A stretch of 64,000 nucleotides of DNA from contig CAYFZH010000001.1 in the NCBI GenBank assembly GCA_964347785.1, forward strand, positions 35,589-99,588, in the 5' to 3' direction. The position numbers and the translations under genes were made by a program. This stretch comes from an uncultured Candidatus Saccharibacteria bacterium. Its GTDB lineage: Bacteria > Patescibacteriota > Minisyncoccia > Phycocordibacterales > Zambryskibacteraceae. This document shows, in pieces, positions 1 through 64,000 of the stretch (its first letter is position 1; each line of letters opens with the position of its first letter). The notes under the pieces are model-generated. The model saw only the letters and a program-made list of their open reading frames with translations, was not told the DNA's origin and did no database searches.

Positions 1-225
1 GTCGCACCTTAAGACCTTGGACCTTTCGCCATCTCTAGCACACATTCTCTTCAAATCTGCGTAAGAGTCAATAGTGGATAAGTGGTTGCATAAGCCAGAT
101 ATCGTGGTAGGATATTTTTTATGCAAGGATTTTGGCAGACATTTACCTACGTAAAGCCTCTCTTTCTCATCATTGAGAAGGGGCTCGTTGGTGTCGCCTA
201 AATCCCGAATCTAGACGAAACCAGA

Positions 226-264
226 GACGAGCCCCGAACTAGTTCGGGGCTCGTCATGTTTTTG
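226..264 (+). terminator. Rho-independent terminator: perfect hairpin gacgagccccgaac/gttcggggctcgtc followed by a TTTTTG tract
   Basis: Perfect inverted repeat followed by a T-tract, read directly from the sequence. It probably terminates a plus-strand gene ending upstream of or at the window edge. Confidence 0.6.
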
Positions 265-302
265 TCTCAGTAGTTTTTAGTTCTTTCAACCAAGGAGAGC
301 GT

Positions 303-587
303 ATGATTGATGAACGAGTGTTCTTCACCACAAAGCACGGTGACAAGCGTGTCACGGTCAAGGACTTGATTCGCAAGAAGGGTCACAAGGGGTGTCTCCA
401 CGGGCGAACGGTCTGGCTTGAGCTTCCCGATGGAAGCAGAGAGGCGCATCAGTACGATGTCTACGCTGTCGATTTTCTGTCGGTCCCTGTCTTTCAGGGG
501 AAACAGAAGATTCGCAGGGAAGCTCGTCGTCTTGATCGTTCTCAGAGAGCTCGTGGATCTGTGTACGAGTATAGATTCGCTCTCTAA
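303..587 (+). CDS. Hypothetical small protein (94 aa)
   Basis: ORF with SD AAGGAGAG about 5 nt upstream of the ATG and a terminator hairpin immediately downstream. The overlapping antisense ORF 267..605 has an S/T/L/R-rich composition typical of a spurious antisense frame. Confidence 0.5.
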   Translation: MIDERVFFTTKHGDKRVTVKDLIRKKGHKGCLHGRTVWLELPDGSREAHQYDVYAVDFLSVPVFQGKQKIRREARRLDRSQRARGSVYEYRFAL

Positions 588-594
588 TCGATTC

Positions 595-626
595 GCGGCG
601 GACACAGTTGTCCGCCGCTTTCTTAT
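595..626 (+). terminator. Rho-independent terminator: hairpin gcggcggacacagttgtccgccgc followed by TTTCTT
   Basis: Inverted repeat with 8-bp arms followed by a T-rich tract, directly after the stop of ORF 303..587. Confidence 0.6.
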
Positions 627-653
627 TGGTAAGAAAGTCTTATACTAAGCGCA

Positions 654-2669
654 ATGTCAGTTTTCAAAATCAATAACGAATTCTCACCAGCTGGAGATCA
701 GCCTAAGGCGATCAAGGAGCTAGTGTCAGGTCTTAAGTCTGGTCTCTCACACCAGACTCTTCTGGGTGTCACAGGCTCTGGTAAGACCTTCACCGCGGCG
801 AACGTCATCGCAGAGATAGGTAAACCCACTCTTGTCATAGCCCACAACAAGACTCTTGCAGCTCAACTCGCACAGGAGTACCGAGAGTTCTTCCCAGACA
901 ACGCAGTGCATTACTTCGTCTCTTACTACGACTACTATCAGCCAGAAGCCTACATCCCTCACTCCGATACTTATATCGAGAAGGAGGCGATGATCAACGA
1001 AGAGATCGAGCGTCTGCGACATGCCTCGACTCAAGCACTGCTTACGAGGAAGGATGTCATTATCGTCGCCTCGGTGTCTTGTATCTACGGCTTGGGTGAC
1101 CCGATAGAATACGAAAAAGTGAATTTGAAAATCTCGAAGGGGGATGTCAGGAGTCGAGCGGACTTTATCCGAGAGCTGATCGACATCCACTATACTCGCA
1201 CTAACTCTGACTTGAAGTCAGGACAGTTCCGCGCACTGGGCAATGTCATCGAGATCATGCCTGTCTCTGAGCGGATCATTTATCGCATCGAGCTTGAGGC
1301 TGGGCAGGTGAGTGCCATCAAGCGGATCGATGCTACTTCTCGCACTATTATCAATGAAGTGGAAGTTTTCTTCCTCTTTCCTGCGAAGCACTTCATCACT
1401 GGAGATAAGGCACAGGAGAAGGCTCTCAAGAGTATCAAGACTGAGCTCGATAAGCGTCTGGTCGAACTCCAAGATGGAGGCAAGCTTCTCGAAGCTGAGA
1501 GGCTCAAGCGACGCACGAGCTATGACCTCGCTATGATCCGCGAGGTGGGCTATACCAACGGGATCGAGAACTACTCCAGACACTTCACCGGCAAGTCTGC
1601 AGGGGAAGCACCCTATACTCTCCTCGACTACTTTCCCAAGAAGGCGGACGGCTCAGCAGACTTCCTCACTATCATCGACGAGTCGCACGTCTCTGTGCCA
1701 CAGATTGGTGGTATGTATGCTGGAGACAGATCTCGCAAGGAGACTCTGGTGGAGCATGGCTTCCGTCTCCCAAGTGCCAAGGACAACAGACCGCTCAAGT
1801 TCGACGAGTTCGAGAAGCGAGTGGGTCAAGTGATCTTCACCTCTGCCACTCCGAGTAAGTATGAGAAGGAGAAGAGTCAGAAAGTGGTGGAGCAGATCAT
1901 CCGTCCGACAGGACTGATCGACCCAGAGATTATCGTCCGTCCTATACAAGAGAAGGGAAGTTACAAGGGGCAGATCGTAGACTTCATCGCCGAGGCAGAG
2001 AAGGCGATAGAGAAGGGGGGTCGTGTCATCGCTACCACTCTGACCAAGAGGATGGCAGAAGATCTCTCTGAATATCTCAAAGAGAAGAAAATCAAAGCAG
2101 AGTATCTACATAGTGACATCAAGACTATCCAGCGTATCGAAATTTTGACCAGTTTACGCAAGGGAGAGTTCGATGTCATCGTGGGAGTAAACCTCCTCCG
2201 GGAAGGGCTCGACTTACCCGAAGTGACACTGATCGGTATTCTCGACGCAGACAAGGAAGGTTTCCTCCGTAGTGAATCGGCACTTATCCAGATCATTGGT
2301 CGTGCAGCGAGAAATGTCCTCGGGCGAGTGATCCTCTACGCAGATAACATGACAGGCTCGATGAAGAACGCGATAGACGAGACAGCTCGACGTCGTGCTA
2401 TCCAGACTGCATATAATACGAAGCATGGGATCACTCCCAAGACGATTATCAAGAAGATCAAGGACATTACAGAAACGCTAGAGCGTGAGCACCACCAAGC
2501 AGTGAACCTGCTTCTAGAGACAGATGAGAAACTTTTCAAAAAAGCTCCAAAGAAAGTGATCAAGGAGAAGACTCGGGAGATGGAGGAAGCGGTCAAGAAC
2601 CTCGACTTCGAGACTGCAGCTATCATCCGTGATGAGATCAAGGCACTTGAAAGTAGGTTGAAAAAGTAG
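654..2669 (+). CDS. uvrB: Excinuclease ABC subunit B (UvrB)
   Basis: 671 aa with a Walker A motif (GVTGSGKTF), helicase motifs and a C-terminal UvrB/UvrC interaction coil. TATACT lies 7 nt upstream of the ATG, suggesting a leaderless start. Confidence 0.95.
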   Translation: MSVFKINNEFSPAGDQPKAIKELVSGLKSGLSHQTLLGVTGSGKTFTAANVIAEIGKPTLVIAHNKTLAAQLAQEYREFFPDNAVHYFVSYYDYYQPEAYIPHSDTYIEKEAMINEEIERLRHASTQALLTRKDVIIVASVSCIYGLGDPIEYEKVNLKISKGDVRSRADFIRELIDIHYTRTNSDLKSGQFRALGNVIEIMPVSERIIYRIELEAGQVSAIKRIDATSRTIINEVEVFFLFPAKHFITGDKAQEKALKSIKTELDKRLVELQDGGKLLEAERLKRRTSYDLAMIREVGYTNGIENYSRHFTGKSAGEAPYTLLDYFPKKADGSADFLTIIDESHVSVPQIGGMYAGDRSRKETLVEHGFRLPSAKDNRPLKFDEFEKRVGQVIFTSATPSKYEKEKSQKVVEQIIRPTGLIDPEIIVRPIQEKGSYKGQIVDFIAEAEKAIEKGGRVIATTLTKRMAEDLSEYLKEKKIKAEYLHSDIKTIQRIEILTSLRKGEFDVIVGVNLLREGLDLPEVTLIGILDADKEGFLRSESALIQIIGRAARNVLGRVILYADNMTGSMKNAIDETARRRAIQTAYNTKHGITPKTIIKKIKDITETLEREHHQAVNLLLETDEKLFKKAPKKVIKEKTREMEEAVKNLDFETAAIIRDEIKALESRLKK

Positions 2670-5961: not shown

Positions 5962-7179
5962 ATGAAAAGTCAAGAGCTCAAGAATTTTAACTTACCAGAT
6001 GCGCCGGGGGTGTATTACTTCTTAGATAAAAAGGGGAAGATTTTGTATGTAGGCAAAGCAACTTCCTTGAAGGATAGGGTCAAGAGTTACTTCGCTCGAG
6101 ATATCTTGATGACACGTGGACCGAAGATCCAGAAGATGCTCGAGGATGCGGTGAGAGTCGAGTACAAGCAGACTGACTCGGTACTTGAGGCACTTATACT
6201 TGAGGCGAACGAGATCAAGCGACTTCAACCTCCTGCCAACTCCAAGGACAAAGATGACAAGAGTTACAACTTCGTCGTGATTACCAAAGAGGATTTCCCA
6301 CGGGTACTAATAAAACGCGGTAGAGAGTTAGAAACAAACACTATGATATATCATAGTGTCTTCGGTCCGTTCCCGAACTCGGGGGAACTCAAAGAGGCTT
6401 TGCGAATAGTCAGGAAGATTTTTCCCTTCAGAGATGAGAAGTGCAAGATCACTGATAAACACAAACCTTGCTTCAACGCACAGCTAGGTCTCTGTCCGGG
6501 ACCTTGTGCGGGATGGATTACGAAGACGGACTACAAGAAGCAGATTAGGAATATCAAAATGTTTCTCGAAGGCAAGAAGCCCAAGCTTATCAAGTCTCTA
6601 GAGCAAGAGATGAAAGCGTTTGCCAAGAAGCACGAGTTTGAGAAAGCGGATGAGATCAAGAAAAAGATTTTTGCCCTCGATCACATTCAAGATATCGCTT
6701 TGATAAAGGCTGACATTACGACCTACGACGAACGACCAACGACATTTAGAATTGAAGCTTATGACATCGCCCATCTCTCGGGTAAAGATGTGGTAGGGGT
6801 GATGACTGTGGTTGAGGATGGAGAGACTGCGAAGAGTCAGTATAGGAAATTTAAAATCAAGCTAGACAAGAACGACGATACCAAGAACCTGAGGGAAGTC
6901 CTCGAGAGACGTCTCAACCACAGAGAGTGGCGACTACCTGAGCTCATCGTTGTAGATGGAGGAGTGGGTCAGATCAACGTCGCGAAGAGTGTGCTCAAGG
7001 AGAGAGGTCTCAAGATTAATGTAGTCTCGGTGGTCAAGGATGATCGGCATAAGGCTCGAGAAATCTTGGACCTCAAGGATAAGACTCTCGAGAAAGCGAT
7101 CATCCTCGCCAATGCAGAAGCGCATCGCTTCGCCATCGGTTATCACAGGAAGCTCCGTGGGAAAGGATTTCGTATATAA
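5962..7179 (+). CDS. uvrC: Excinuclease ABC subunit C (UvrC), short form lacking the C-terminal (HhH)2 domain
   Basis: N-terminal GIY-YIG motif (GVYYF..GKILYVGKA), a Cys-rich segment, the UvrB-interaction region and an RNase H-like endonuclease domain. At 405 aa it is shorter than the typical ~600 aa. Confidence 0.85.
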   Translation: MKSQELKNFNLPDAPGVYYFLDKKGKILYVGKATSLKDRVKSYFARDILMTRGPKIQKMLEDAVRVEYKQTDSVLEALILEANEIKRLQPPANSKDKDDKSYNFVVITKEDFPRVLIKRGRELETNTMIYHSVFGPFPNSGELKEALRIVRKIFPFRDEKCKITDKHKPCFNAQLGLCPGPCAGWITKTDYKKQIRNIKMFLEGKKPKLIKSLEQEMKAFAKKHEFEKADEIKKKIFALDHIQDIALIKADITTYDERPTTFRIEAYDIAHLSGKDVVGVMTVVEDGETAKSQYRKFKIKLDKNDDTKNLREVLERRLNHREWRLPELIVVDGGVGQINVAKSVLKERGLKINVVSVVKDDRHKAREILDLKDKTLEKAIILANAEAHRFAIGYHRKLRGKGFRI

Positions 7180-8867: not shown

Positions 8868-9043
8868 GCATTATGAAAACTGACCCATATCAGACCAGAG
8901 TGGTACATGTTGGGATAAATATTTGTATGCTTCGCATGCAGATCTAGTGGATCACAAATAAATTTCCTGACGGAAATTTTTCGCGACCCCCGCTCGCAAT
9001 TTTTGCCTTTCGCTTCGCTCAAACAAAAATATAGCTGCGCGCT

Positions 9044-9093
9044 CCACAAAATAAGAAAAGACTGGAGCAGTCCAGTCTTTTCTTATTTTGTGG
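9044..9093. terminator. Perfect 23-bp-arm palindrome (ccacaaaataagaaaagactgga-gcag-tccagtcttttcttattttgtgg), a bidirectional terminator abutting the 3' end of tRNA-Ala(UGC)
   Basis: Exact inverted repeat with a 4-nt loop. The outer arm includes the tRNA 3' end (..TGG). Confidence 0.6.
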
Positions 9094-9163
9094 ACCCTAC
9101 CGGGATCGAACCGGTCACCTCCTCATTGCAAATGAGGCGCTCTACCAGATGAGCTAAGGGCCC
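9091..9163 (-). tRNA. tRNA-Ala (anticodon UGC)
   Basis: 73-nt cloverleaf folded by hand: acceptor GGGCCCU/AGGGUCC with a G3:U70 pair, D-arm GCUC/GAGC containing GG, anticodon loop UUUGCAA, and T-loop UUCGAUC. CCA is not encoded. Confidence 0.85.
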
Positions 9164-9222
9164 TAAATTTCTAACCGATTGATTCTAGTATAAAAATGGA
9201 GCAAAATAAAGCCCTAATAAAA

Positions 9223-9293
9223 GGGCCCATAGTATAGTAGTAACACGCATCCATGGCATGGATGAGTCCGGAGTGCGATTCTCCGTGGGTCCA
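9223..9293 (+). tRNA. tRNA-Ala (anticodon GGC), noncanonical D- and T-loops
   Basis: 71 nt: acceptor GGGCCCA/UGGGUCC with G3:U70, and anticodon stem CAUCC/GGAUG with loop AUGGCAU. The D-loop lacks the conserved GG and the T-loop reads UGCGAUU (G at position 55). CCA is not encoded. Confidence 0.6.
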
Positions 9294-9317
9294 CAAAAGC
9301 GCGGGGCGCTTTTGTGG
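9291..9317 (+). terminator. Perfect palindrome ccacaaaagcgc-ggg-gcgcttttgtgg including the tRNA-Ala(GGC) 3' end
   Basis: 12-bp arms with a T-tract in the 3' arm. It shares the CCACAAAA/TTTTGTGG outer motif with the palindrome at 9044..9093. Confidence 0.5.
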
Positions 9318-9329
9318 CGTGTTCACAAG

Positions 9330-9405
9330 GGACGATTAGCTCAGTTGGTTAGAGCGTACGATTCACATTCGTAAGGTCACAGGTTCAATTCCTGTATCGT
9401 CCACC
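9330..9405 (+). tRNA. tRNA-Val (anticodon CAC)
   Basis: Acceptor GGACGAU/AUCGUCC fully paired, D-arm GCUC/GAGC with GG, anticodon loop UUCACAU, and T-loop UUCAAUU. Discriminator A followed by CC. Confidence 0.85.
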
Positions 9406-9440: not shown

Positions 9441-10124
9441 ATGAAGAAAGTCGCTATATTTGACGTAGATGGGACCATCTTCCGATCGAGTCTACTCATC
9501 GAGCTGGTCAATGTGCTCATAGACAAGAAGCTTTTTCCCGCGGATTCTTACACAGAGTATAACAAGGAGTACTTGGCTTGGATGGATAGGAAGGGGACAT
9601 ACGAGGAGTACATCATGGCGGTGGTGAGAGTCTTTATGAAATATATTGTGGGGATTAGCTACACAGATCTGCAAGAAGTTTCTAGGATCGTGGTGGCACA
9701 TCACGCGGATCGTACATATAGATATACGCGGGACCTGATCAAGGAACTCAAGGAGAAGGACTACTATATCCTCGCCATCTCGCACTCGCCGAAGACAGTC
9801 CTAGACGAGTTCGCGAAGAAGATGGGCTTCGACAAGGTCTACGGTATGCGTTATGAGGTGGACGCAGATGGTAAGTATACGAGTACAATCTTGGACGAAG
9901 AGATCATCAGGAACAAGAACAAGGTTCTCGAGAGAGCAGTAGAGAAGGAGGGTCTCACTCTAGAGGATTCTGTGGGAGTGGGGGATACTGAGTCTGATAT
10001 CAAGTTCTTGAGCATGGTGGCGAAGCCGATCTGCTTCAACCCTAACAGTGGTCTATACAAACATGCGAAGGAAGCAGGCTGGAAGGTGGTCGTAGAGAGG
10101 AAGGATGTGGTTTATGAACTGTAA
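9441..10124 (+). CDS. HAD-superfamily hydrolase (HAD-IB / phosphoserine-phosphatase-like)
   Basis: N-terminal DxD motif (FDVDGTIF) and C-terminal GDTESD motif. An extended -10 (TGTTAGTAT) lies 6 nt upstream of the ATG. Confidence 0.7.
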   Translation: MKKVAIFDVDGTIFRSSLLIELVNVLIDKKLFPADSYTEYNKEYLAWMDRKGTYEEYIMAVVRVFMKYIVGISYTDLQEVSRIVVAHHADRTYRYTRDLIKELKEKDYYILAISHSPKTVLDEFAKKMGFDKVYGMRYEVDADGKYTSTILDEEIIRNKNKVLERAVEKEGLTLEDSVGVGDTESDIKFLSMVAKPICFNPNSGLYKHAKEAGWKVVVERKDVVYEL

Positions 10125-10553: not shown

Positions 10554-10567
10554 CTTCTCCGGCAGTA

Positions 10568-10600
10568 CCCCCACGCGAAGAGTCGCGTGGGGGTCTTATT
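10568..10600 (+). terminator. Rho-independent terminator ccccccacgcga-agag-tcgcgtggggg followed by TCTTATT
   Basis: 11-bp GC-rich stem followed by a T-tract, after the response-regulator gene. Confidence 0.7.
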
Positions 10601-10610
10601 ATATAAAGTT

Positions 10611-10634
10611 AAACCCACCCGTAAGGGTGGGTTT
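10611..10634 (-). terminator. Hairpin aaacccaccc-gtaa-gggtgggttt, terminator for the minus-strand SWIB gene
   Basis: 10-bp stem with U-rich flanks in both directions. It forms a convergent-gene terminator pair with 10568..10600. Confidence 0.55.
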
Positions 10635-10661
10635 AACTAACTTTTGTTCTCGAGTCTTAGA

Positions 10662-26760: not shown

Positions 26761-28023
26761 ATGAATTCAAAAGAAATAAGAAAACGATTTGCAGATTTTT
26801 TTGAAAAGAGGGGACACGCTGTCATCCCTTCCGCTTCTCTCGTGCCTGATCAGAACGACAAGTCAGTACTCTTCAACACTGCAGGGATGCAACCTCTCCA
26901 ACCTTACCTTATGGGTGCAGAGCATCCGAAGGGTAAGCGCTTGGTCAACATTCAGAAGTGCGTCCGCACTCAAGATATCGAAGAAGTGGGGGACAAGACG
27001 CATGACACCTTCTTCGAAATGCTTGGTAACTGGTCTCTCGGTGATTATTTCAAAGAAGAGGCGATCAAGTGGAGTTTCGAGCTCCTTACTTCCAAGGAAG
27101 AGGGTTTCGGTCTCGATCCAAAGAGACTTTATGTCACCGTCTTCGAAGGAGATGATAACGCTCCTAAGGATACAGAGGCCTTCGAGATTTGGAAGAAGTA
27201 TATGCCAGAGAATCGTATCTATTTCCTCGGGGCAGATAAGAACTGGTGGAGTGTGGGACCCAATGGCCCATGTGGTCCTGATACAGAGATGTACTACGAC
27301 GTGACTCCAGAAGGTCTCGGTGATCTTAGTTTGGAGGAGTTCAAGAAGGTGGACGACGAGCAGAAGGTGGTCGAGATCTGGAACGACGTCTTCATGCAAT
27401 ATGAGAAGAAGGATGGCAGTATTGTAGGCAGGCTTTCTCAACAGAATGTCGATACCGGTGCCGGTCTTGAGCGTCTGGTTATGGCTCTGCAGAACAAGGA
27501 CAACATCTTCGATACAGATCTCTTTGCACCGCTCATGGCGATACTGCCGAAGGAGAAGGACCTCAAGTCCGCTCGAGTGGTCGCCGACCACATGCGTACA
27601 TCCGTTTTCATGATTGCTGATGGTGTAACTCCATCGAACACCGATAGGGGTTATATCCTCCGTCGACTATTACGCCGTTCGTATGTCCATGCGAGAAAAC
27701 TGGGAGCTAGTCCAGAAGTTCTTGAGTCTGTAGCAGAGCTCGTGGTGTCGCATGAGAGTTATAAGGGTCTCTACAGCTTCAACCCTGATACCATAAAGAT
27801 AATCAGAGAAGAAATAGAGAAGTTCAAGAAAGCTCTTGAAGCTGGACTAAAGCAAGTGGAGAAAGGAGCCGATCCCTTCACCCTCTTTACCAGTTATGGT
27901 TTGCCACTCGAGATTATCGAAGAGGTAACAGCAGTAGATCGGGAGAAGTTTGCGAAACAACTGGCTGAACACAAACAAATGTCCAGTGTGGCGGGTGAGC
28001 AGAAATTTAAAAGTACGTTATAA
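26761..28023 (+). CDS. alaS: Alanyl-tRNA synthetase, catalytic/tRNA-recognition N-terminal fragment only (420 aa; no editing or C-Ala domains)
   Basis: AlaRS N-terminal motifs (FFEKRGH, FNTAGM, KCVRT.DIE, LGNWS.GDYFK). The ORF ends with a TAA stop and the next gene is unrelated. Confidence 0.85.
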   Translation: MNSKEIRKRFADFFEKRGHAVIPSASLVPDQNDKSVLFNTAGMQPLQPYLMGAEHPKGKRLVNIQKCVRTQDIEEVGDKTHDTFFEMLGNWSLGDYFKEEAIKWSFELLTSKEEGFGLDPKRLYVTVFEGDDNAPKDTEAFEIWKKYMPENRIYFLGADKNWWSVGPNGPCGPDTEMYYDVTPEGLGDLSLEEFKKVDDEQKVVEIWNDVFMQYEKKDGSIVGRLSQQNVDTGAGLERLVMALQNKDNIFDTDLFAPLMAILPKEKDLKSARVVADHMRTSVFMIADGVTPSNTDRGYILRRLLRRSYVHARKLGASPEVLESVAELVVSHESYKGLYSFNPDTIKIIREEIEKFKKALEAGLKQVEKGADPFTLFTSYGLPLEIIEEVTAVDREKFAKQLAEHKQMSSVAGEQKFKSTL

Positions 28024-28030
28024 TTTGTCT

Positions 28031-29365
28031 ATGCCAAAAAATATCGACGATGTAATCTTGCCAGAAAGGAGGAAAAGCATCAGGAATATCCCCATCCCTG
28101 AAGGTCGGAGCAAAAAGGGTGAGAAAGTTGCTCTCGACGGTGTTAAGCGTCCTGCACGAGTAGCAGAAGATAGAGAAGAAGTTTCTCACGAAGCAGAACG
28201 TCACGAGTCATCTCGTCGTACACACAATCCCAAGAAGAAGATCTGGCTCGCTTCAGGTTTCGCCATCTTGGTACTCATCTTCTCTGTCCTCTCAATGTTT
28301 AAGGGTGGCACTCTCTCCTATGTGCCTAAGTCGGTAGATCTCAAGTTTGCAAACGACATCTTCTCTGCGGTCAAGACTGGTGAGGATAAGCTCACTTATA
28401 GTGTGGTCAAGCTCTCTGGGGATAAGGGAGTGAGTGTCCCTGCTACGGGAGAACAGGCGGTGAGTCGTAAGGCTTCCGGTATGATCGTGGTCTACAACGA
28501 CGCTTCAGCCGAACCTCAGAAGTTGGTCGAGAACACTCGTTTCGAGTCCCCAACAGGCAAGATCTACCGTATCGCTACAGCTATCACTATCCCCGGCAAG
28601 AAGACTGTGGCGGGTAAGTCTCAACCAGGGAGTATTGAGGTCAAGGTCAACGCAGATGTCGCTGGTGCTGAATACAACTCGGAGCCTACTGACTTTACCG
28701 TCCCCGGGCTCAAGGGATCTCCTCGTTACACCACTATCTATGCTCGTTCCTCCACTGCTATCTCTGGAGGGTTTGTGGGCAAGGAGAAGGCTGTCGCTCC
28801 AGCAGACTTAGAGAAGGCTAAGGCAGAGCTCAAGACTTCCCTCAGCCAAGGACTTCTAGCCAAGGCGCAAGCCGAGGTGCCGTCTGAGTTTATCCTCTTC
28901 CCCACACTCTCATCCGTCAGTTTTGAGGACCTACCACAGAGCAATACTGGTAGTGGGAGCACTGTGACGGTCAATCTCCGCGGTCACCTATACGGTATTA
29001 TGTTTAAGAAGAACGACCTCTCCCACGAGCTAGGCAAGAAGAAGGCCTCTCTGGCGAAGGATGATTCTGTTGAGCTCGTCTCCTTCGATTCTCTAGAACT
29101 AGCCTTCGCCGGTGTCGCACCAACCAACCTTCTCTCTCTCAATGAGATTAGCTTCAAGGTTACTGGAGAAAGTAAGCTCGTCTGGCGTACTGACGAGGTG
29201 GCTCTCAAGTCAGATATCCTAGGACGCAAGAAGTCTGAACTCTCTACTATCCTGAAGAATTACCCTACAATCTCATCCGCCTCTGCCACACTTAGACCAT
29301 TTTGGAAGACGACTTTTCCTCTAGAGGGTGATAAGGTGTCCGTGAAGAAATTAGAAATCAAATAA
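28031..29365 (+). CDS. Hypothetical membrane-anchored protein (444 aa; charged N-terminus, one TM, large beta-rich ectodomain)
   Basis: The ORF-track start at 27950 is out of frame. The ATG at 28031 lies 7 nt after the alaS stop. TAATG overlap with infA. Confidence 0.5.
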   Translation: MPKNIDDVILPERRKSIRNIPIPEGRSKKGEKVALDGVKRPARVAEDREEVSHEAERHESSRRTHNPKKKIWLASGFAILVLIFSVLSMFKGGTLSYVPKSVDLKFANDIFSAVKTGEDKLTYSVVKLSGDKGVSVPATGEQAVSRKASGMIVVYNDASAEPQKLVENTRFESPTGKIYRIATAITIPGKKTVAGKSQPGSIEVKVNADVAGAEYNSEPTDFTVPGLKGSPRYTTIYARSSTAISGGFVGKEKAVAPADLEKAKAELKTSLSQGLLAKAQAEVPSEFILFPTLSSVSFEDLPQSNTGSGSTVTVNLRGHLYGIMFKKNDLSHELGKKKASLAKDDSVELVSFDSLELAFAGVAPTNLLSLNEISFKVTGESKLVWRTDEVALKSDILGRKKSELSTILKNYPTISSASATLRPFWKTTFPLEGDKVSVKKLEIK

Positions 29366-33296: not shown

Positions 33297-33330
33297 AAAA
33301 ACCAGACTCGAAAGAGTCTGGTTTTGTTTT
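33297..33330. terminator. Bidirectional rho-independent terminator aaaaccagactc-gaaa-gagtctggtttt followed by GTTTT
   Basis: Perfect 12-bp stem flanked by A- and T-tracts. It ends the ribosomal-protein operon. Confidence 0.75.
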
Positions 33331-49594: not shown

Positions 49595-49600
49595 TGTGCA

Positions 49601-49637
49601 AAAGCCTGTGGTCTACACGACCACAGGCTTTTTTATA
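49601..49637 (+). terminator. Strong rho-independent terminator aaagcctgtggtc-tacac-gaccacaggcttt followed by TTTAT
   Basis: 13-bp stem followed by a T-tract after the GNAT gene. Confidence 0.8.
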
Positions 49638-60466: not shown

Positions 60467-61666
60467 ATGAATGAGAAAATCGTAGTTCGCATACCACCAT
60501 CCCCGACAGGGAACCTGCATATCGGTACAGCTCGTACTGCTCTCTTCAACTACCTCTTTGCCAAGAAGCATGGGGGCAAGGTATTACTCCGTAGTGAGGA
60601 CACAGACAAGGAGAGGTCTAAGAAAGAATTCGAAGACAATATTATAGAAGGTCTGGCTTGGCTTGGTGTCGAGTATGACGGTGAGATGGTCAGACAGTCG
60701 GAGAGAACTGAGATTTATATTAAGTATCTCAAGCAAATGATTGAGGGTGGTACCGCTTATGTTTCTAAAGAGGAACCCAAGGAAGAGGGTCAGAGAGCAG
60801 AAGTGATACGACTTAGGAATCCCAACAAGAAGGTGAAGTTTAACGACCTCGTCCGCGGAGAGATCGAGTTCGACACGACCGAGCTCAAGGACTTCGTCAT
60901 AGCGAAGAGTCTTGAGGAGCCACTCTACCACCTCGCTGTAGTAGTGGATGATCACGAGATGGGTGTGACACACATCATCCGTGGAGAAGACCATATCTCA
61001 AACACTCCCAGACAGATCTTGATCCAAGAAGCATTGGGTCTGCCACGCCCTGAGTATGCTCACATTCCTCTTATCCTTGCTCCAGATCGCTCCAAACTCT
61101 CTAAGAGGCACGGCGCTACTTCTCTCGCTGAATACAAAGAGAAGGGTTATCTTCCACAAGCGATGGTGAATTATCTGGCACTCCTCGGTTGGAACCCGGG
61201 TACAGAGCAAGAAATCTTCTCTATGTCAGAGCTTATCGAGCAGTTCGACCTCAAGAAGATTCAGAAGGGGGGAGCGATCTTCGACGAGAAGAAGCTGGAG
61301 TGGGTCAACAAGGAGCATGTAAAGCTCTTGCCACCCGAGGAGCAGAGAGCTCGACTACTCGCCTCGATACAGGATGAGCCATATATGAAGGGTGTACCAG
61401 AACTAGATTTGTCGAAGATTTGTTGGAAGGAGGTTAGTAAGGAAGATACCAAGAATCACTTGGCTAAGGTCAAGGAAATGCTAGGAGACCCAGATGCTAC
61501 AATGAAGTACGCAGAACAAGTGGGGAAGGGGAATGTCCTCTGGCCTCTGCGCTACGCTCTCTCTGGTCTTGAGAAGTCTCCGGACCCGTTTACTTTGCTC
61601 TCGATTCTCGGTCAAGAAGAATCCCTCAGGCGTGTTGAGAGAGCGATCGAAGCCCTCAACCAATAA
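60467..61666 (+). CDS. gltX: Glutamyl-tRNA synthetase (short)
   Basis: HIGH (PSPTGNLHIGTAR) and KMSKS-like KLSKR motifs. An extended -10 (TGCTAAAAT) lies 7 nt upstream of the ATG. The ORF-track TTG at 60443 is an extension. Confidence 0.85.
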   Translation: MNEKIVVRIPPSPTGNLHIGTARTALFNYLFAKKHGGKVLLRSEDTDKERSKKEFEDNIIEGLAWLGVEYDGEMVRQSERTEIYIKYLKQMIEGGTAYVSKEEPKEEGQRAEVIRLRNPNKKVKFNDLVRGEIEFDTTELKDFVIAKSLEEPLYHLAVVVDDHEMGVTHIIRGEDHISNTPRQILIQEALGLPRPEYAHIPLILAPDRSKLSKRHGATSLAEYKEKGYLPQAMVNYLALLGWNPGTEQEIFSMSELIEQFDLKKIQKGGAIFDEKKLEWVNKEHVKLLPPEEQRARLLASIQDEPYMKGVPELDLSKICWKEVSKEDTKNHLAKVKEMLGDPDATMKYAEQVGKGNVLWPLRYALSGLEKSPDPFTLLSILGQEESLRRVERAIEALNQ

Positions 61667-62970
61667 TGCAGGACAAAGTATTTCTCTTAGTATTTCCTAT
61701 AATTTTCTCATTGACTCTCCTTGGGTTAGAACCAGAGAGATTGTTTGCTGTGACTAATACTGATTCTCTCTCGACACAGATAGAGTCTGTGAGACGACAG
61801 CGTGAGGCTCTAGTCGACGAGCAGAAGCGTCTCCAAGATGAGCTCGACAAACTCTCGACTCAGAGTGCCAACCTCGGCACGGCAGTGAAGTCGCTCGATG
61901 CGACGAGGAAGAAGCTTGCTTCTGATATAAAGGTGACTCAATCCAAGATTTCTTCTACCGATCTAAACATCAAGGTCCTTGAGAACAGCGTCAATGCTGC
62001 GGAGAGGAAGATCGACACACATCAGAGCGCTATCGCCAGTGCGATCAAGGCCTTATACAACTATGATTCTAGTCCGCTCTGGATCAATCTACTCGCATCT
62101 GAGAATCTCTCAGATGCTTGGCGAGACAGAACTCAACTCGAAGGTCTAAATGTTTCTCTCGAAGACGAGATAGATGGTTTGCGAGAAACCAAGACCAAGC
62201 TAACCAAGGAGAAGGAGAAGAAGGAGGAAGCGAAGAAAGAGATCGTCTCTCTGAGTAAGGAGCTGACAGGGCAGAAGACTGTGGTAGAGCAGACCAAGAA
62301 GGCCCAAGAACAACTCCTCGCCCAGACCAAGAGTAAGGAAGCACTCTACCAAGAGATGCTGAAGGAAAATCTCGAGCGACAGAAACAGACCGAGCAGGAT
62401 CTCTACAGCTTGGAGTCAGAGCTCAACATCGCTATCGACCCCACTCTCATCCCGAAGCCGAAGCTGGGTGTGCTCTCTTGGCCACTCGACAAGGTCTATA
62501 TCACTCAACGTTTCGGTAGGACGGCTGGGGCATCTAGACTCTATGCCTCGGGGAGTCACAATGGGATAGACTTCCGTGCTACGCAAGGGACGAGGGTCCT
62601 CGCTATGCTCTCTGGGGTGGTCGAGGGTACTGGTAACACAGACGAGCAGAAGGGTTGTTACTCGTATGGTCGCTGGGTCCTGATCAAGCACGCGAACGGT
62701 CTCTCGAGCGTCTACGCGCACCTCTCCGCCTCTACGGTCTCTAAGGGGCAAGTGGTGGGTACTGGTGAGGTTATAGGCTATTCTGGAGGTCTGCCAAGAG
62801 TCTTCGGCTCAGGGTACTCTACGGGTCAACACTTGCACGTAGGCCTCTTTGCCAGCCAAGGAGTCAAGGTGGAGAGGTTTGTCACCAGTAAGGGTTGTAA
62901 GCAGGTGGTGGTCCCTATCGTCGACATCAAGGCTTATCTTGACCCTCTTGCGTATCTACCGTCTATTTAA
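61666..62970 (+). CDS. M23-family peptidase with an N-terminal coiled coil (EnvC/NlpD-like murein hydrolase activator)
   Basis: Signal/TM, long heptad region and C-terminal LytM motifs (HNGIDF, HLHVGLF). 1-nt overlap with gltX. Confidence 0.8.
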   Translation: MQDKVFLLVFPIIFSLTLLGLEPERLFAVTNTDSLSTQIESVRRQREALVDEQKRLQDELDKLSTQSANLGTAVKSLDATRKKLASDIKVTQSKISSTDLNIKVLENSVNAAERKIDTHQSAIASAIKALYNYDSSPLWINLLASENLSDAWRDRTQLEGLNVSLEDEIDGLRETKTKLTKEKEKKEEAKKEIVSLSKELTGQKTVVEQTKKAQEQLLAQTKSKEALYQEMLKENLERQKQTEQDLYSLESELNIAIDPTLIPKPKLGVLSWPLDKVYITQRFGRTAGASRLYASGSHNGIDFRATQGTRVLAMLSGVVEGTGNTDEQKGCYSYGRWVLIKHANGLSSVYAHLSASTVSKGQVVGTGEVIGYSGGLPRVFGSGYSTGQHLHVGLFASQGVKVERFVTSKGCKQVVVPIVDIKAYLDPLAYLPSI

Positions 62971-62982
62971 TAAACTTTACAT

Positions 62983-63270
62983 ATGACTAATCTAAAGCGT
63001 GAGACGAATAGGGGATTTGTAATGATTGTCGTTCTCATCATCGCCGGTCTTGCTGCTCTTAAGTACTTCTTGAACTGGGACATCTTCGACGCTGCTTCCT
63101 CTGAGCAGGGTCAGAGTACTATCGGGTATATACGTGACCTCGTGAACACTGTCTGGTCATACCTCGAGGCACCAGTAAGGTTTGCTTGGAACGAAGTGGC
63201 TTGGCCGATACTTCTCTTCGCTTGGCACAGTCTTCAGCAATTAATCAGTATGGGTCGCGCTAACGCTTAA
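62983..63270 (+). CDS. Small membrane protein (95 aa)
   Basis: ORF with one TM and W-rich amphipathic segments. Confidence 0.4.
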   Translation: MTNLKRETNRGFVMIVVLIIAGLAALKYFLNWDIFDAASSEQGQSTIGYIRDLVNTVWSYLEAPVRFAWNEVAWPILLFAWHSLQQLISMGRANA

Positions 63271-63394
63271 GCTCTAAATTATTTATGAAATTTCTCAAAC
63301 TTGTTCTCTTCTTCGCCCTCTCTCCACTCTATGTGCCAGCGTATCTCCTGATGAACTTCTCCTTCAAATGGTGGACGAGTCTCTTGGAGTGATC

Positions 63395-64000
63395 TTACTC
63401 GACAACTTTCTCTAGACGCATACCTCTTGAACCCTTGACCAGTACGGTCCAATCCTTCCAATCTTCTTCTGTAAACCATTCGCGAGCTTTCTCTGAGCTT
63501 TCGAACCAGAGAGATTTGAGAGTAACGTACTCTAGGGTTTTCTTGAAATTTTCTCCGACTAGTATTGTGCGCTCGATATTTTGCTTCGCAAGATATTCTA
63601 ATATTTCTCGATGGTAGTGATCAGAATAGTCTCCAAGCTCAAGCATGTCACCCAATACAACAGCGCGAGGAGGAACTGCAGAGCTTATAAAACTTTCTAG
63701 GGCGAGTCTCAAGCTGGTGGGGTTTGCGTTGTAACAGTCGAGGATTATCTTGGTCCCGTCCTTTTCTACTAGCTGACTTCTCTTGAGAGTGGGGGAGTAG
63801 TGGGTTATAGCCTCGAGAGATTCCTTTGTGTCCAATCCAAATTCTTGTCCTATAGATAGAGCTGAAATAATGTTCTCTAGATTATAATCACCGAAAAGTT
63901 GCGTCTTGTATTCTGAGTCTTCGTATCTGAGAGTGAGGGGTAGGGAAGAGGTCTTTTCTAAATTTATTGGCATCTTGTGTATCACCACTTTTCCCTGCTC
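63395..64000 (-). CDS. murF: UDP-N-acetylmuramoyl-tripeptide--D-alanyl-D-alanine ligase MurF (C-terminal part only; the gene continues beyond the window)
   Basis: Mur-ligase C-terminal domain motifs (DCYNANP.S, VVLGDMLELG). The frame stays open to the window edge. Confidence 0.75.
   Translation of the reverse strand, partial: EQGKVVIHKMPINLEKTSSLPLTLRYEDSEYKTQLFGDYNLENIISALSIGQEFGLDTKESLEAITHYSPTLKRSQLVEKDGTKIILDCYNANPTSLRLALESFISSAVPPRAVVLGDMLELGDYSDHYHREILEYLAKQNIERTILVGENFKKTLEYVTLKSLWFESSEKAREWFTEEDWKDWTVLVKGSRGMRLEKVVE

Follow-up and report, generated by a model that had tools for sequence, protein, structure and literature searches.

A Patescibacteria tRNA locus with trailer hairpins and a putative A18-G55 elbow contact in tRNA-Ala(GGC)

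We analysed a stretch of 64,000 nucleotides (nt) from an uncultured Candidatus Saccharibacteria bacterium (contig CAYFZH010000001.1; hereafter the window), with a focus on a cluster of three transfer RNA (tRNA) genes. Genes were called with ARAGORN and with the Rfam tRNA model (RF00005, gathering score 29). Both tools agree on a canonical tRNA-Ala(UGC) on the minus strand (9091-9163; 73 nt, 64.2 bits in Rfam), a tRNA-Ala(GGC) on the plus strand (9223-9293; 71 nt, 50.3 bits over the full model, 1-71) and a canonical tRNA-Val(CAC), also on the plus strand (9330-9403; 73.6 bits). The arrangement given in an earlier first-pass annotation, namely two tRNA-Ala genes that diverge from a 59-nt AT-rich spacer (9164-9222, 25% G+C) and are followed by tRNA-Val, is therefore confirmed. 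The same holds for its reading of the gene ends. Indeed, both tRNA-Ala genes possess the G3:U70 pair and A73, then CAAAA, tRNA-Val has A73, then CCC, and CCA is encoded in none of the three. Since CCA is not encoded, the precursors would have to be cleaved after A73, with CCA added later. A HAD-family hydrolase gene (9441-10124) starts 37 nt after tRNA-Val, and a perfect palindrome covers the 3′ end of each tRNA-Ala gene.

Compared with canonical tRNA-Ala (RF00005), tRNA-Ala(GGC) shows the same cloverleaf, G3:U70, A73 and GGC anticodon, and the same U8, A14, G19:C56, U54/A58 and G53:C61; it differs by A18 and G55. Its D-loop (AGUAGUA) counts 7 nt and has no GG, its T-loop reads UGCGAUU and its variable loop has 4 nt. 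Nucleotide 18 is an A (9239) and nucleotide 55 a G (9275), whereas G19 (9240) and C56 (9276) are kept; from the universal elbow set G18/G19/U55/C56, only G19 and C56 are present. The first-pass annotation had described this copy as noncanonical in both loops, with a bearing on tertiary folding. This description is borne out and can be narrowed down to the two nucleotides. Judged on its sequence, the RNA appears to be a tRNA-Ala by every criterion that we tested, bar nucleotides 18 and 55.

The contact between G18 and pseudouridine 55 belongs to the small set of contacts that give all cytoplasmic tRNAs their L-shape. According to work of Pan et al. in 2006, it is also reportedly needed for fast translocation. 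Nucleotides 18 and 55 are in contact within the tRNA elbow (PMC4810234), and published accounts call their pairing strictly conserved or virtually universal (PMC4117946, PMC4810234). Full-text literature searches, with subscription journals outside their coverage, returned no description of a tRNA that combines A18 with G55, nor did those on tRNA modification and TruB in the candidate phyla radiation and Patescibacteria bring up this variant.

We scanned metagenomes for tRNA-Ala(GGC) genes with an identical acceptor stem and obtained 120 sequences. The unusual 71-nt architecture, in which the D-loop has 7 nt and the variable loop 4 nt and an A12-C23 mismatch is often present, was found in 27 of them, all with the D-loop GG and a UUCG or UUCA T-loop. 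No match for the A18/G55 variant was found in a scan of viral contigs. In a gap-free alignment of 31 tRNA-Ala(GGC) sequences (alignment A4), where column 17 corresponds to nucleotide 18 and column 53 to nucleotide 55, the window and one related locus, L186, are alone in having A in column 17 and G in column 53. At the invariant positions, the window differs from its closest relatives at exactly two places, G18 to A and U55 to G. Columns 18 and 54 (G19:C56) and the G:U at columns 3:68 are invariant, and the family cloverleaf is 96.5% paired, with 13 pairs showing changes on both sides. We also considered that tRNA-Ala(GGC) had been remoulded from a neighbouring tRNA-Pro(GGG), as tRNA-Pro genes stand at this place in loci L001 and L002; this idea was dropped once the 27 canonical 71-nt tRNA-Ala(GGC) had been found.

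The divergent tRNA-Ala pair lies beside the same HAD gene in four lineages: the window, L186 (HAD protein 76% identical to that of the window), L190/L191/L192 (67%) and L193 (65%, with the pair flipped). The syntenic tRNA-Ala(GGC) is G18/U55 in L190/L191/L192 and in L193, and A18/G55 in L186. As L190 and L193 are canonical and L186 carries the variant, the double change would postdate the divergence from these two lineages. The window and L186 genes differ at seven positions, six of which form three compensatory stem pairs and one of which is unpaired; no pair is broken. A closer relative, 90% identical (L184, L185), is represented by contigs that begin inside tRNA-Val, which puts its tRNA-Ala(GGC) gene beyond reach.

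Could the two changes at invariant positions be damage in a decaying pseudogene? Besides the alteration of two near-universal nucleotides, the Rfam scores of the window and L186 genes (50.3 and 50.5 bits) lie 6-8 bits under those of the canonical orthologues (58.2 and 56.1 bits), A12-C23 is a mismatch in the D-stem, and the minimum-energy fold does not contain the D-arm. However, this mismatch is common to many canonical members of the family, and no damage is seen at G3:U70, A73, the anticodon loop, G19:C56 or U54/A58. L186 holds A18/G55 through three compensatory stem-pair changes without a broken pair, and, as described below, other genomes have the identical double change fixed in tRNA-Cys and tRNA-His. 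The pseudogene call that the first-pass annotation had envisaged for 9223-9293 also finds no echo in the gene finders, since ARAGORN accepts the gene and Rfam scores it at 50.3 bits against the threshold of 29. Decay is thus extremely improbable in our view. A18/G55 in tRNA-Ala(GGC) appears rather to be held under purifying selection, and conservation, from which function is inferred here, points to a working tRNA.

The double change is not restricted to tRNA-Ala. Running ARAGORN over 199 fetched loci and the window gave 268 distinct tRNAs, 13 of which carry G55: two tRNA-Ala(GGC), five tRNA-Cys, three tRNA-His and one each of tRNA-Leu(GAG), tRNA-Phe and tRNA-Gly(GCC). A18 followed by G19 is present in all 13, and the GG is lacking in none of the 255 others. 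The coupling between positions 18 and 55 is highly significant (Fisher p = 2e-22), also when each of the six tRNA families is counted once (2e-12). The co-variation of D- and T-loop changes, which the first-pass annotation had raised as a question, is thus clearly positive. Among tRNA-Leu(GAG), Cys, His and Phe, an A18-G19 D-loop together with a UGCAA or UGCGA T-loop is found at L062 2040-2125, L068 3167-3240 (minus strand), L078 2086-2159, L102 2994-3066 (minus), L196 3923-3996 and 8708-8779 (minus), L198 2387-2459 and 7082-7153 (minus), and L199 3111-3182, 4959-5034 (minus) and 7082-7153 (minus). The carriers that could be placed belong to Paceibacteria. They include an NCBI genome record of 661 kb whose tRNA-Cys and tRNA-His are both A18/G55, and the variant is kept for these two amino acids over several Paceibacteria contigs. 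Cys and His normally have one isoacceptor each; their A18/G55 tRNAs therefore presumably serve translation. As it is fixed in several tRNA families, A18/G55 would be an accepted alternative to the canonical pair and not damage.

Other substitutions in the elbow were met in the same collection. C55 is found in six tRNAs with a UCCGA T-loop (Phe, Lys, His, Arg, Pro and Ala(CGC)), and all six keep G18G19 (L039 7997-8071, L080 772-845, L082 3059-3132 on the minus strand, L145 7075-7147, L169 5804-5875 and L193 1456-1527 on the minus strand). The tRNA-Gly(GCC) of L199 (4790-4863, minus), with the D-loop AGCUAGUA and the T-loop CGCGCAU, combines A18/G55 with C at 54 and 58, and could be a further variant or a pseudogene. 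In a tRNA-Leu(UAA) (L198 2468-2554; D-loop GAACUGCCAGA, T-loop UUGGACU), G19:C56 is apparently flipped to C19:G56. Finally, two tRNA-Ala(GGC) with an AUCGUAA T-loop (L061 216-288 and L086 1143-1215, both on the minus strand) have the U54-A58 reverse-Hoogsteen pair apparently swapped to A54-U58.

The known bacterial tRNAs without a D-loop GG are the cell-wall (peptidoglycan bridge) tRNA-Gly of Staphylococcus (PMC4574755). These carry U18U19 or C18U19, have lost G19:C56, coexist with canonical isoacceptors and avoid translation (PMC4574755, PMC7826273). Like them, the window tRNA-Ala(GGC) lacks the GG and has a deviant T-loop, and it might by analogy be a specialised tRNA acting outside translation, as an alanine donor to the cell-wall bridge or to a protein N-terminus. 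Two neighbouring genes would fit such a role. In the window, a gene for D-Ala-D-Ala ligase is found about 1 kb left of the pair, and in L186 a gene that abuts tRNA-Ala(UGC) (35-781, minus strand) encodes a 248-amino-acid protein with Pfam ATE_C and Acetyltransf_6 matches above threshold. Aminoacyl-tRNA protein transferases have this ATE_C/Acetyltransf_6 fold. With the L186 protein as the query, tblastn returned no significant match in the window; the search included no Fem-family query, and the domain scans beside it were not exhaustive. Furthermore, unlike the staphylococcal species, tRNA-Ala(GGC) keeps G19:C56 and swaps the inner pair only, in a covarying manner that is also seen in tRNA-Cys and tRNA-His. 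These two are presumably translational. L190 and L193 moreover have a canonical orthologue at the syntenic site. We thus judge a role outside translation to be very unlikely and favour a tRNA-Ala(GGC) that works in translation with a modified elbow. Within the 64 kb of the genome that the window covers, ARAGORN detects no second tRNA-Ala(GGC) gene.

How could the A18-G55 elbow be maintained? A18, being a purine, would still intercalate in the T-loop between nucleotides 57 and 58, and G55 would give it a new hydrogen-bond partner, possibly in a sheared or an imino A-G pair. In this way, the molecule would keep its L-shape and the elbow face that the ribosome and RNase P read. G55 cannot be converted to pseudouridine.

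The enzymes that read the elbow may also have left room for the change. By NCBIfam and Pfam scans, the alanine-tRNA ligase (AlaRS) of the window (26761-28020, plus strand; 420 amino acids) consists of the catalytic domain only (PF01411). It has neither an editing (tRNA_SAD) domain nor a C-Ala domain, and the next open reading frame (28031-29362) is unrelated. The AlaRS homologues listed are either about 400-450 or about 570-610 amino acids long, the latter with tRNA_SAD, and C-Ala is found in none of those listed. In C. elegans, the C-Ala domain reads G18 of tRNA-Ala (PMC10485164); an AlaRS without it would thus mean that one constraint on G18 is missing in the window lineage. The missing C-Ala domain cannot account for the Cys, His and Phe cases of A18/G55. 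Among the roughly 50 larger open reading frames of the window that were scanned, split between NCBIfam and Pfam and without three large ones near the right end (60467-63973), no truB, RNase Z or CCA-adding enzyme was found. Reduced elbow readers in these small genomes, with an AlaRS devoid of C-Ala and possibly a missing pseudouridine-55 synthase, may have allowed A18-G55. We can propose, tentatively and with more doubt than confidence, that A18-G55 is a lineage-wide alternative elbow in Paceibacteria that arose repeatedly in different tRNA families, is compensated and was eased by a reduced elbow-reading machinery.

We also examined the palindromes. The left one has its arms at 9043-9066 and 9071-9094 (minus strand; 24 nt each, 100% complementary) around a GCAG loop, and the right one at 9291-9302 and 9306-9317 (plus strand; 12 nt each, perfect) around a GGG loop. 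Both are perfect and placed as the first-pass annotation had them, save that the left arms are of 24 and not 23 nt. The left hairpin starts inside the tRNA, its first four nucleotides (UCCA) being nucleotides 70-73 of tRNA-Ala(UGC), and the first three of the right hairpin (CCA) are nucleotides 71-73 of tRNA-Ala(GGC). As RNA, they form very stable hairpins, the left one at -41.6 kcal/mol (z = -9.2) and the right one at -19.6 kcal/mol (z = -3.4), and both are arranged as an A-tract, a short stem-loop and a U-tract, with a distal arm complementary to the tRNA end and the CAAAA start of the trailer. The octamer CCACAAAA that forms the outer ends of both is found six times in the window (1.1 expected), four of these occurrences being palindrome ends. 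These shared ends are explained by the fact that both tRNA-Ala end in GGGUCCA and that trailers of the clade mostly start with CAAAA (6/10 tRNA-Ala trailers examined).

Do these hairpins terminate transcription? On the minus strand, the left one matches the terminator consensus, with the stem GGACTGCTCCAGTCT followed by TTTCTTATTT; such a match is not proof of function, and termination of tRNA-Ala(UGC) transcription is its most likely role. The right hairpin (9291-9317) was not called terminator-like in the same scan. It has a 4-bp GCGC/GCGC core followed by UUUU, with no U-run beyond the full 12-bp stem, and a strong terminator is unlikely there because tRNA-Val lies only 12 nt downstream. 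It is probably at most a weak terminator, or else a processing or stability element. In general layout, both resemble Rho-independent terminators with an upstream A-tract, which work bidirectionally: the A-tract, stem-loop and U-tract order is the same, the tracts lengthen the stem, the hairpins lie directly 3′ of a stable-RNA gene, and several of the same design are present in the window. Unlike such terminators, the stems enter the acceptor end by 3-4 nt and are closed by CCAC/GUGG outside the U-tract, and the right one has a G+C core of only 4 bp with another tRNA 12 nt further on.

Perfect hairpins with arms of at least 12 nt number 13 in the window and none in five mononucleotide shuffles; as this count nests each hairpin at several loop sizes, it corresponds to six distinct ones. 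Two others, at 33298-33325 and 49600-49632, have perfect 12-14-nt arms with AAAA...TTTT ends and are likely bidirectional terminators. Two more with perfect 12-14-nt arms, at 10567-10594 and 10607-10638, do not have such ends; they stand back to back between a response-regulator gene and a SWIB gene. Another perfect palindrome, at 226-255, is loop-free; with it, the other palindromes of the window have arms of 12-15 nt. Perfect hairpins with 14-22-nt arms also lie at or just after the end of other Patescibacteria tRNA genes, and similar ones follow protein genes in this lineage. Trailer hairpins that begin 3 nt inside the tRNA were found, in addition to the two of the window, for tRNA-Ala(UGC) of L190 and tRNA-Gln of L023. 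The view that palindromes of this length are unusual for terminators thus stands within the window for the 24-nt one, but not for arms of 12-14 nt, which recur there, and it does not extend to other Patescibacteria tRNAs. In contrast, their proposed role as processing or termination signals is supported.

The first-pass annotation had also offered that the palindromes are footprints of an inverted duplication that created the pair. More broadly, they could be scars of recombination or sites acting at the DNA level, such as a cruciform or an integration site. The arms are indeed perfect, the match runs past the A/U tracts 3-4 nt into each tRNA, and the outer ends share the same octamer. Moreover, the tRNA-Ala(UGC) hairpin of L190 resembles the tRNA-Ala(GGC) hairpin of the window by its GGG loop and 4-bp core, which is compatible with copying between genes. 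However, the two tRNA-Ala genes (73 and 71 nt) are old, distinct isoacceptors that are identical in only 51 of 77 aligned columns, mostly in the acceptor stem and at universal positions, and inverted matches between them are limited to the acceptor ends. The pair also persists in L186, L190/L191 and L193, which lack one palindrome or both. On these grounds, limited identity and persistence of the pair, inverted duplication is rejected. With no repeats, integrase or transposase found in the flanks in the window, and with similar hairpins after unrelated tRNAs and protein genes, scars or DNA-level sites are together quite unlikely, and trailer hairpins of the tRNA transcripts remain our preferred reading.

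The trailer palindromes are evolutionarily unstable. In L190/L191, the left one has the same outer frame, TCCACAAAA...TTTTGTGGA, around a different and much shorter core (13-nt arms), and it is absent in L186 and L193; in L186, tRNA-Ala(UGC) encodes its CCA and the next gene directly adjoins it. The right palindrome and tRNA-Val are absent in L186, L190 and L193, the three relatives with a readable site. Conservation of the palindromes, on which the first-pass annotation had leaned to tell terminators from other signals, is thus partial, with the left frame kept once and the right palindrome seen in none of the three. In L190, the HAD start codon lies 6 nt after tRNA-Ala(GGC). At L190 573-580, as at L193 ~2327-2335 and 1445-1456, the ATG of a protein gene comes 6-11 nt after a tRNA gene and no hairpin separates the two, which suggests tRNA-mRNA co-transcripts with an mRNA 5′ end made by tRNA 3′ processing.

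In the window, the plus-strand unit would include tRNA-Val and probably also the HAD hydrolase gene. The 9164-9222 spacer is presumed to be a two-way promoter region. A sigma-70 consensus scan found no site for either tRNA-Ala gene in the spacer, and the sole match nearby is on the minus strand within the tRNA-Ala(GGC) gene. In a three-way alignment (A2), the spacer motif GATTCTAG (9181-9188) is common to the window, L186 and L190, and the longer motifs ATTGATTCTAG (9178-9188) and AGCAAAATAAAGCC (9200-9213) are common to the window and L190 only. The spacer of L186 is longer (134 nt) and contains an inverted repeat of its own, GATAGCTAATAGCTTACAG / CTGTAAGCTATTAGC (866-884 and 963-985).

The locus is best read as a normal chromosomal tRNA locus of Patescibacteria (Paceibacteria/Parcubacteria), for which the mirror arrangement and the palindromes are ordinary. 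The window also carries ordinary housekeeping genes, namely uvrBAC, ddl, leuS, mnmA, alaS, ribosomal proteins, rpoA, dnaK/J, ftsW and murG, and an ENA contig (L180, 51.6 kb) is identical to it across the tRNA locus. In a collection of species-representative genomes, relatives of the HAD hydrolase were found in Patescibacteria, Paceibacterota and Parcubacteria assemblies only, at identities of at most 63%. None of these 59 loci has the complete tRNA-Ala pair beside the HAD gene, which makes them usable for taxonomy and as examples of trailer hairpins only. L001 keeps tRNA-Ala(UGC) with two tRNA-Pro genes in place of tRNA-Ala(GGC), and no tRNA-Ala(GGC) lies beside the HAD gene at P0004, P0005, P0007, P0008 and P0024.

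Two features of the surroundings are worth recording. The window UvrC (5962-7179, plus strand) has only 405 amino acids, against about 600 in most bacteria, and matches full-length UvrC models (about 570-700 positions) partially, best in its N-terminal part. Beyond the left hairpin, a G+C-rich block at about 8975-8998 (TTCGCGACCCCCGCTCGCAA) resembles one at about 293-312 of L190 (CTCGCGACCCCGGCTCGG); it sits in a 230-nt non-coding stretch with no Rfam match.

Altogether, we consider it likely that this is an ordinary tRNA locus with trailer hairpins, encoding a functional tRNA-Ala(GGC) in which the G18-U55 contact has been replaced by a compensated and recurrent A18-G55. Several points weigh against this interpretation. 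In a deep mutational scan of yeast SUP4oc, G18-U55 tolerated no single mutation and G18A was rescued by U20G only (PMC4117946), so that no model tRNA is known to work with A18-G55; how the two bases would meet is likewise conjecture. The variant is seen in only two tRNA-Ala(GGC) lineages and may there represent a single evolutionary event. The tRNA set behind the recurrence counts is non-random, most loci having been fetched for a tRNA-Ala(GGC) gene or a Patescibacteria protein, and position 18 was set by alignment to canonical relatives and by eye, three of the 13 D-loops having been mis-scored by script and re-read. As for the hairpins, the U-run falls inside the full stem and the right one escaped the terminator scan. 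Finally, this interpretation does not account for the extension of the distal arm into GUGG(A), which pairs with the last 3-4 nt of the tRNA.

From its sequence and its relatives, tRNA-Ala(GGC) can be seen as a putative case of a near-universal tertiary contact being exchanged for another, in a compensated manner that recurs. An A18-G55 pair that occurs in nature, is conserved and recurs tells us which second substitution renders the first one tolerable, and it offers a design rule for engineered tRNAs that can be put to the test. As A18/G55 tRNAs score lower in tRNA detectors, they are at risk of being annotated as pseudogenes. There is also concrete reason to ask how, in Patescibacteria, an altered elbow is handled by ribosomes, RNase P, EF-Tu and the enzymes of tRNA modification. 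If A18-G55 did prove to be a lineage-wide elbow, Paceibacteria, with the companion swaps at 19:56 and 54:58 that are seen in the same tRNA collection, would constitute a natural mutational experiment on the tertiary core of tRNA.

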